Virus record (IMG/VR): IMGVR_UViG_3300035034_001226
Coordinates: 22,721-86,720 of that record
From: a virus
DNA: 64,000 bases
Strand: one strand, 5' to 3'
Shown: piece after piece, positions 50,712 to 50,780 of the stretch
Numbering within the stretch: position 1 is the first letter of the stretch
Layout: the number at the start of each line of letters is the position of its first letter
Translations under genes and position numbers: made by a program
The notes under the pieces: generated by a model
Told to the model about the DNA's origin: nothing
The model's input: only the letters and a program-made list of their open reading frames with translations
The model's database searches: none

Positions 50712-50780
50712 TGGTGGGGGTGGTGGAATTGAACCACTTTTCCGGGAATCCCGGTGCAAAGCCATTTTTGCTACACTCCC
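50712..50780 (-). tRNA. tRNA-like gene with 3-nt anticodon loop
   Basis: Acceptor, D arm, T arm and CCA present; CCGGG-ATT-CCCGG. Confidence 0.65.

Follow-up and report, generated by a model that had tools for sequence, protein, structure and literature searches.

A tRNA-shaped gene with a sealed anticodon arm in the tRNA array of an XacN1-like phage

Is a phage gene that has kept the shape of a tRNA and lost its anticodon a maintained gene, or is it the fresh remnant of a broken one? We addressed this question for a 69-nt element, its encoded CCA included, which lies on the minus strand at 50712–50780 of a 64,000-nt stretch of viral DNA (positions 22,721 to 86,720 of the IMG/VR record IMGVR_UViG_3300035034_001226), referred to below as the window. 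An initial annotation, made from the sequence alone, had described the element as a tRNA lacking an anticodon. From T4 and T5 onwards, stable tRNA-like RNAs have been recognized in phage tRNA arrays, and the present gene is an unusually clean case: a relative of tRNA-Lys whose decoding part is gone and whose fold is retained, found in a phage with genes for CCA addition and RNA-ligase repair. Its anatomy, its family relationship and the preservation of its pairing are established at the level of sequence, and we give about an even chance to the reading that it is a maintained non-decoding tRNA mimic.

Anatomy of the element

Read 5' to 3', the RNA starts with the acceptor strand GGGAGUG (50774–50780; the preceding base, 50781, is a G), followed by UA, the D arm GCAA-AAAUGGCU-UUGC with G18 and G19 (50756–50771), a single A, the anticodon arm CCGGG-AUU-CCCGG (50742–50754), AAAA, the T arm GUGG-UUCAAUU-CCAC with a canonical 7-nt loop (50723–50737), and finally the 3' acceptor strand CACCCCC, in which C69 stands opposite A4, the discriminator A73 and the CCA (50712–50722). 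The element scores 39.1 bits with the Rfam tRNA model RF00005, whose gathering score is 29 (E 2e-6 over 1.5 kb and 9.8e-5 over the whole window), and the alignment deletes four of the seven anticodon-loop positions and one T-stem pair. The cloverleaf is the minimum-energy fold and makes up 59% of the ensemble. ARAGORN gives no tRNA call for the element, and two other Rfam models tried on it, YrlA (15.4 bits, E 7) and permuted tmRNA (12.3 bits, E 7.8), did not match. The gene has the format of nearly all tRNA genes of the cluster, with CCA followed by an A and a short AT-rich spacer.

The anticodon stem of five G-C pairs closed by only ATT, as first described, was recovered in the sequence, the fold and the Rfam alignment. 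In the RNA, the AUU loop is closed by G31-C39 and contains neither U33 nor a readable anticodon; all 39 called tRNAs of the record have 7-nt anticodon loops. Because a 3-nt loop closed by a G-C pair presents no anticodon, the element is predicted to be unable to read codons, in agreement with its earlier designation as non-decoding. It alone among the 40 has an all-G-C anticodon stem, the 39 real tRNAs having one to four G-C pairs, and this GC hairpin was found once in the window, for a chance expectation of 0.14 matches.

The remainder had been described as an intact acceptor, D arm, T arm and CCA. This holds for the D arm, with its G18 and G19, and for the encoded CCA, but not for the T stem, which has four pairs (GUGG/CCAC) instead of five, giving an acceptor/T stack of 11 bp versus the normal 12, nor for the acceptor stem, which has one mismatch, A4.C69. 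Uninterrupted 5-bp T stems are present in 37 of the 39 real tRNAs. Nevertheless, 19 of the 20 stem pairs are standard, and U8, A14, G18, G19, U54, U55, C56 and A58 are all kept; position 21 is U, not A. The GC content of the element is 54%, versus 34% for the genome, and the flanking spacers have 16% and 23% GC.

These departures from a regular tRNA are not assembly errors, as three assemblies from different pipelines agree base for base. An ENA MEGAHIT contig (ERZ27315366) is 100% identical to the window over 6456 bases and a Logan contig of run SRR7141805 over 3716 bases, the element being included in both; both contigs also hold the neighboring HNH gene, and the sample independence of the three assemblies cannot be told. 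The assembly error that the initial annotation had named among the possible refutations of its reading is thus not borne out. Two short open reading frames (ORFs) with TTG starts overlap the element, one on the minus strand (50670–50795, 41 aa) and one on the plus strand (50629–50841, 70 aa); both cross tRNA genes, are accounted for by the tRNA-like structure and were not taken as genes. An assembly or sequencing artefact, or a piece of a small protein-coding ORF, is therefore a practically negligible explanation.

Kinship with tRNA-Lys and preserved pairing

Among the 38 tRNAs of the window, the closest to the element is its downstream neighbor, tRNA-Lys(UUU) at 50580–50658 on the minus strand, supported by ARAGORN, RF00005 and the alignment, with 54 of 69 positions identical. 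The two coincide in their first 11 nt and in the bases of the T stem, and their 3' ends differ only by a change of U69 to C. The likeness extends to the canonical tRNA-Lys of the phage group, namely the window genes at 50580, 50800 and 47113, tRNA-Lys(CUU) and tRNA-Lys(UUU) of the nearest long relative, G001, and those of Xanthomonas phage XacN1: 47–54 of 69 positions are identical, with the acceptor start GGGAGU and the end CCCACCA, whereas the T stem GUGG/CCAC is common with the 50580 copy. In contrast to these tRNAs, the element has a 3-nt instead of a 7-nt loop, no anticodon, a 4-bp T stem, an acceptor A.C mismatch and a different D stem. The anticodon stem of G001 tRNA-Lys(CUU), CCGGA/UCCGG, is one base pair off the CCGGG/CCCGG of the element, and the GGGAGU acceptor start is common to both genes. 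We assign the element, on these similarities, to the tRNA-Lys family of the phage group. Given the Lys kinship in the window and the G001 stem, no exotic donor is needed, and no donor for a mosaic was found: neither the D arm GCAA/UUGC nor the stem CCGGG/CCCGG occurs in any other tRNA of the record or its relatives.

The GC hairpin could conceivably be something else, the retained variable arm of a class II (long-arm) tRNA from which the whole anticodon arm was deleted. In bacteria, CCGGG-NNN-CCCGG at such a distance from the T arm is mostly the variable arm of tRNA-Sec, tRNA-Ser or tRNA-Leu, and a class II tRNA minus 17 nt has the right length. However, the D arm is of the class I type (4–5-bp stem, 8-nt loop), the acceptor stem, the T stem and the CACCGG stretch fit the tRNA-Lys family, and the stem is one base pair off the anticodon stem mentioned above, which makes a class II origin very improbable.

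The differences from the Lys genes are distributed in a way that spares the pairing. Relative to tRNA-Lys(UUU) 50580, the element carries 11 stem substitutions; the five pairs that changed on both sides all still pair, and one pair, A4.C69, is broken. Over the Lys paralogs, all five to six two-sided stem changes still pair, and in the D arm the pairs 12-23 and 13-22 changed on both sides with their pairing kept. The T stem lacks a G on one strand and a C on the opposite one, again with pairing kept. We simulated neutral drift by introducing the same number of random stem substitutions, in 200,000 trials, with four Lys genes as references. Drift from the 50580 gene broke eight pairs on average, and no more than one pair in 4.5e-5 of the trials; with the other two window paralogs as starting points, no more than one pair was broken in 0 and 5e-6 of the trials, and with G001 tRNA-Lys(CUU), which requires 14 substitutions, P was 5e-6.

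The signs of neutral decay are thus missing from the element: one of 20 pairs is broken, the tertiary nucleotides are kept and the GC content has not drifted to the genome level. The earlier assertion that the rest of the molecule is preserved beyond what random decay predicts is upheld by these figures (P from 4.5e-5 down to 0) and by the elbow nucleotides. Because of the stem changes, the simulations, the T stem, the elbow nucleotides, the base composition and the gene format, we reject, at the level of these comparisons, a long-dead copy of the neighboring gene.

Maintained mimic or young pseudogene

The setting of the element bears directly on the alternative to maintenance. The parent record is 105 kb long, with a completeness of about 30% as estimated by CheckV, and can be classified as a fragment of an XacN1-like jumbo phage because of the identities of its major capsid protein, which are 64–70% with Xanthomonas phage XacN1, Xoo-sp13 and Stenotrophomonas phage CM1, 83–88% with uncultured IMG/VR relatives, and 84% with G001. 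The tRNA array in the window consists of 38 genes called by ARAGORN, every one on the minus strand. This region has almost no genes in common with G001 and is therefore hypervariable. The element is flanked by two intact tRNA-Lys(UUU) genes, the downstream one described above and an upstream one at 50800–50875 on the minus strand (ARAGORN; RF00005 70.8 bits), with a gap of 19 nt between its end and the element. A free-standing HNH endonuclease gene (50100–50555; Pfam HNH_2, E 2.5e-11) lies on the plus strand at a distance of 25 nt from the downstream tRNA-Lys; it is mobile, as its homologs, with 55–63% identity, are found in unrelated replication modules of other phages.

In such a place, the element could be a young tRNA pseudogene or scar, that is, a redundant third tRNA-Lys-family copy minus four loop nucleotides, inert and not yet decayed, produced perhaps by homing-endonuclease-driven rearrangement or imprecise repair. 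Several observations weigh for this explanation and against maintenance. A third copy is dispensable with two intact tRNA-Lys(UUU) genes on its sides, an HNH homing endonuclease gene adjoins, and the tRNA region turns over fast. The A4.C69 mismatch and the 11-bp acceptor/T stack, with its shortened T stem, depart from what tRNA-handling enzymes measure. Moreover, the preserved pairing speaks of constraint along the lineage and does not establish constraint after the loop was lost; a recently working tRNA minus four loop bases would look much alike apart from the T stem, as one of 4 bp is very unusual in elongator tRNAs that function. Pseudogenes are known in phage tRNA arrays, with one per terminal repeat in XacN1 (PMC5852040) and tRNA-Gln2 flagged as a pseudogene in T5, and the window holds another reduced tRNA-like gene, at 42978–43046, which looks more decayed, with two acceptor mismatches and no CCA. 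Conversely, the three departures of the element (four loop nucleotides fewer, one T-stem pair fewer with a loss on both strands, U69 to C) do not disrupt the fold and spare the elbow nucleotides, a 4-bp T stem requires two complementary deletions or one template-switch event, and a high GC content is kept in an AT-rich genome. In addition, as far as the sequences indicate, no single deletion would turn the Lys loops CUUUUAA or CUCUUAA into AUU. Balancing these points, we regard the young pseudogene as a serious possibility whose chance is somewhat under even.

The searches for orthologs gave no evidence of conservation. A covariance model built from the element, which scores 104.7 bits on the element itself, finds only ordinary tRNAs (≤39.6 bits) in the assembled tRNA regions of nine related records (G001, G002, G003, G010, G011, XacN1, Xoo-sp13, CM1 and RsoM2USA). 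Pattern scans of IMG/VR with free loop length (hairpin plus T stem, D arm, two ends) gave no ortholog, exact-match scans of this kind missing orthologs below ~90–95% identity; the only match to the two-ends pattern is a tRNA-Leu of an unrelated phage and not an ortholog. Two scans of JGI metagenomes likewise gave no ortholog: a synteny pattern found nothing, and a D-loop/T-loop pattern had a single match, a chance one that lacks a cloverleaf. A blastn search of 50,697 deposited phage records retrieved only chance-level fragments of the T arm. An apparent second short-loop tRNA, at L035 15–82, proved to be a long-arm tRNA cut by the locus edge. No ortholog with a 3-nt or a 7-nt loop is thus present in any collection searched, and the element is a singleton as far as public data reach, which agrees with the pseudogene explanation. 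The same holds for its surroundings: the flanking proteins of 153 and 161 aa have no relatives in IMG/VR, the latter matching only itself among 5.8 billion proteins, and the flanking ORFs are ORFans.

If the element is nevertheless a maintained mimic, a tRNA-Lys-family gene would have turned into a gene for a non-decoding, tRNA-shaped RNA, with a 13-nt all-G-C arm and a T stem one pair short. It would be transcribed together with the upstream tRNA-Lys, as the last gene of that unit, and host tRNA-processing enzymes would cut out a CCA-ending RNA of ~69 nt. Any action would go through the upper half of the molecule, the acceptor end and the elbow, for instance by tying up a protein that recognizes the elbow or the ends of tRNAs; candidate partners would be a host toxin attacking tRNA 3' ends or, on the phage side, the enzymes of CCA addition and ligase repair. 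Besides the preserved fold, this reading is favored by the nucleotidyltransferase and ligase genes of the phage fragment, by a second sealed tRNA body on an unrelated viral contig and by the stable tRNA-like RNAs annotated in the T5 and T4 arrays, all described below.

More specific roles had been proposed in the initial annotation, an aminoacyl donor or a decoy for tRNA-sensing or tRNA-modifying toxins that resists anticodon nucleases. The anticodon is the main identity element by which lysyl-tRNA synthetase (LysRS) recognizes tRNA-Lys, and charging of the element by LysRS is unlikely because the enzyme relies on the anticodon, which is absent. The element also lacks the G3.U70 pair of AlaRS recognition and the long arm of SerRS recognition; a His identity was rejected, as G-1 is present but the discriminator is A73, not C. 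A decoy for anticodon-loop nucleases is disfavored because the element is devoid of the loop that they bind, so that a decoy role is conceivable only for factors reading the acceptor end or the elbow.

Genes for enzymes of this kind are present in the tRNA region of the window: a PolyA_pol/CCA-adding-type nucleotidyltransferase gene at 31116–32228 and two RNA-ligase-family genes at 20957–22087 and 22869–23513, all on the minus strand. Neither Thg1 nor a peptidyl-tRNA hydrolase was found in this 30% fragment of the phage. XacN1 is reported to encode a CCA-adding enzyme, PNKP/Hen1, a Thg1-type enzyme and a peptidyl-tRNA hydrolase (PMC5852040). The CCA-adding and ligase genes, together with the repair enzymes of XacN1, therefore indicate that the phage group invests in tRNA-end and tRNA-break repair.

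The downstream border of the proposed transcription unit would be marked by a sigma-70-like promoter match, TTGACA-17-TATGAT (50673–50701, minus strand, 11 of 12 consensus positions), which begins 11 nt past the CCA of the element and faces the downstream tRNA-Lys. Three strong sites of this type were observed on the minus strand, at 49873–49901, 50673–50701 and 51218–51246 (12, 11 and 10 of 12 positions, respectively), each starting within ~25 nt after a tRNA or tRNA-like 3' end; these calls are consensus matches only, and the region as a whole has no more such sites than shuffled sequences. Because the three promoter-like sites follow such 3' ends, their arrangement suggests many short transcription units within the array. 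No intrinsic terminator was found in the region around the element, and a terminator role for the GC hairpin itself was rejected, as no U run follows it on either strand.

These features allow a further explanation, in which the tRNA shape is a processing or stability module: RNase P and 3' trimming enzymes would be drawn to it, so that the transcript of the upstream tRNA-Lys ends just before the next promoter. Such a module would resemble the plant mitochondrial t-elements; the element is the last structured element before the strong promoter-like site, the region has no intrinsic terminator, and the upper half that RNase P reads is kept. Yet the upstream tRNA-Lys already has its own processing signals, and neither a sealed anticodon arm nor a complete D arm is required for this purpose, so that we hold such a module to be quite unlikely.

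The choice between the two leading explanations matters beyond this locus. Expressed and maintained, the element would be a simple test object for what phages do with non-decoding tRNA shapes. As a young pseudogene, it would show a fast output of well-folded dead copies by homing-endonuclease-rich tRNA arrays, and it would serve as a warning against assigning a function to every tidy tRNA look-alike.

Comparable and neighboring tRNA-like elements

The closest analogs of the element in well-studied phages are found in T5 and T4, whose tRNA arrays also contain homing endonuclease genes according to the annotated records. In the T5 record (NC_005859), RNA1 and RNA2 are annotated as "tRNA-like stable RNA with unknown functions" and the 73-nt RNA3 (33877–33949) as "putative tRNA-like RNA". 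Like the element, the three genes lie within a phage tRNA array, one in which HNH endonuclease genes and a tRNA pseudogene are also found. RNA3 is the most similar, being tRNA-sized, placed beside a real tRNA gene, terminated by ACCA, and provided with a non-decodable closed arm (6 bp, 6-nt loop) in the place of the anticodon arm. It differs by the absence of a D stem, an odd T loop and the lack of any Rfam tRNA match at E ≤ 1, whereas the element, with its 39 bits, comes close to a complete tRNA. The other two, RNA1 (144 nt) and RNA2 (125 nt), are longer and contain inserts. No sequence similarity of the element to T5 RNA1–3 or to T4 rnaC/rnaD was detected by blastn.

The rnaC and rnaD RNAs of T4 are co-processed with tRNAs. 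Their genes (NC_000866 70908–71171; the small stable RNAs species 1 and 2) resemble the element in their position, at the end of the tRNA cluster and beside the homing endonuclease gene segB, and differ from it in size, 119–139 nt, which is not that of a tRNA. Another comparable object is the pseudo-tRNA tRNA-Other of Bacillus cereus, reported to be a tRNA-like gene that is not functional in translation and has a deletion phenotype (PMC3399842). It differs from the element in being bacterial and chromosomal.

A class-level scan of IMG/VR for the same hairpin stem with any triloop at the right distance from the T arm gave one clear second instance, L066:3418–3484 on the plus strand (IMGVR_UViG_3300042904_000419). 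It scores 58.1 bits with RF00005 and folds as a cloverleaf (z −2.7), and ARAGORN does not call it. It shares with the element a full class I tRNA body and a CCGGG/CCCGG arm sealed by a triloop (CUU), but the stem was the search query, so that its presence in both says nothing on homology; in contrast to the element, it lies outside any tRNA array, on an unrelated contig that is GC-rich, lacks the CCA, and has a T stem of 5 bp and a C1.A72 end. Its D arm and stem recur in L189:7215–7288, a normal tRNA-His(GUG) with a 7-nt loop, and this pair indicates that sealed arms can arise from ordinary tRNAs. One may extend the proposal of maintenance to a class of sealed-anticodon tRNAs, nuclease-proof look-alikes that soak up or redirect proteins reading the elbow and the CCA end, with the element and L066:3418–3484 as two independent members. 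Their targets would be either the phage CCA-adding and ligase repair enzymes or host toxins acting on tRNA 3' ends by modification or cleavage. We consider the existence of such a maintained class to be improbable.

A further candidate from IMG/VR, L064:8194–8270 (plus strand, 77 nt, CCGGG-CCA-CCCGG; IMGVR_UViG_3300021046_000006), was set aside, as it pairs poorly in the acceptor stem, does not fold into a cloverleaf and is not matched by Rfam. This uncalled sequence fills a slot between tRNA-Ile and tRNA-Thr in an array of 21 tRNAs, with a canonical T arm and a GCCA end.

Other reduced or enlarged tRNA-like sequences are present on the minus strand of the window, and none of them is called by ARAGORN. 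The gene at 42978–43046, already mentioned, lies directly upstream of tRNA-Ile(GAU), scores 39.8 bits with RF00005 and has a 4-bp anticodon stem with a 6-nt loop, ACGAAC. The sequence at 52917–53034 matches the same model at 34.1 bits over 118 nt, with a large insert, and two sequences with tRNA-like ends, at 51354–51439 and 50001–50085, give weak matches to the tRNA-Sec model (32.5 and 25.1 bits, below the gathering score). In addition, a GOLLD RNA (RF02032) was recognized on the minus strand at 41945–42404, with 156 bits against a gathering score of 150, and encloses the tRNA-Leu(CAA) at 42267–42340; the GOLLD RNA of XacN1 (L002:3787–4200) scores 227 bits.

Related phages carry unusual genes of their own. 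In XacN1, an unannotated tRNA-like gene at L002:12380–12488 on the minus strand (RF00005 45.6 bits) has a 40–48-nt insert replacing the anticodon loop, and an 87-nt gene annotated as tRNA-Lys at L002:12119–12207, also on the minus strand, has a long arm and a CUU anticodon and reaches only 32 bits. These elements, which stand beside the tRNA-Lys pair of XacN1, were considered as counterparts of the element and rejected, as the 40–48-nt insert and the 87-nt long-arm gene are different kinds of object. Matches to the tmRNA model were also obtained in XacN1, at L002 5174–5593. In G001, ARAGORN reports a "tRNA-???" with a two-base anticodon, equivalent to a 6-nt loop, at L033:18997–19070 on the minus strand.

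Just upstream, on the minus strand, of a small ORF at 50882–51028, a unit of ~37 nt (ataatattattcccctaatgtaaattaattatttgca) occurs in two tandem copies (window ~51029–51100). Finally, 1.2 kb past the end of the window, at G000:C1 87947–88020, ARAGORN identifies a tRNA with a CUA anticodon (labeled Pyl), which would read amber; G001 also has a CUA-anticodon tRNA (L034:4842–4917), and two CUA suppressor tRNAs have been reported from XacN1.

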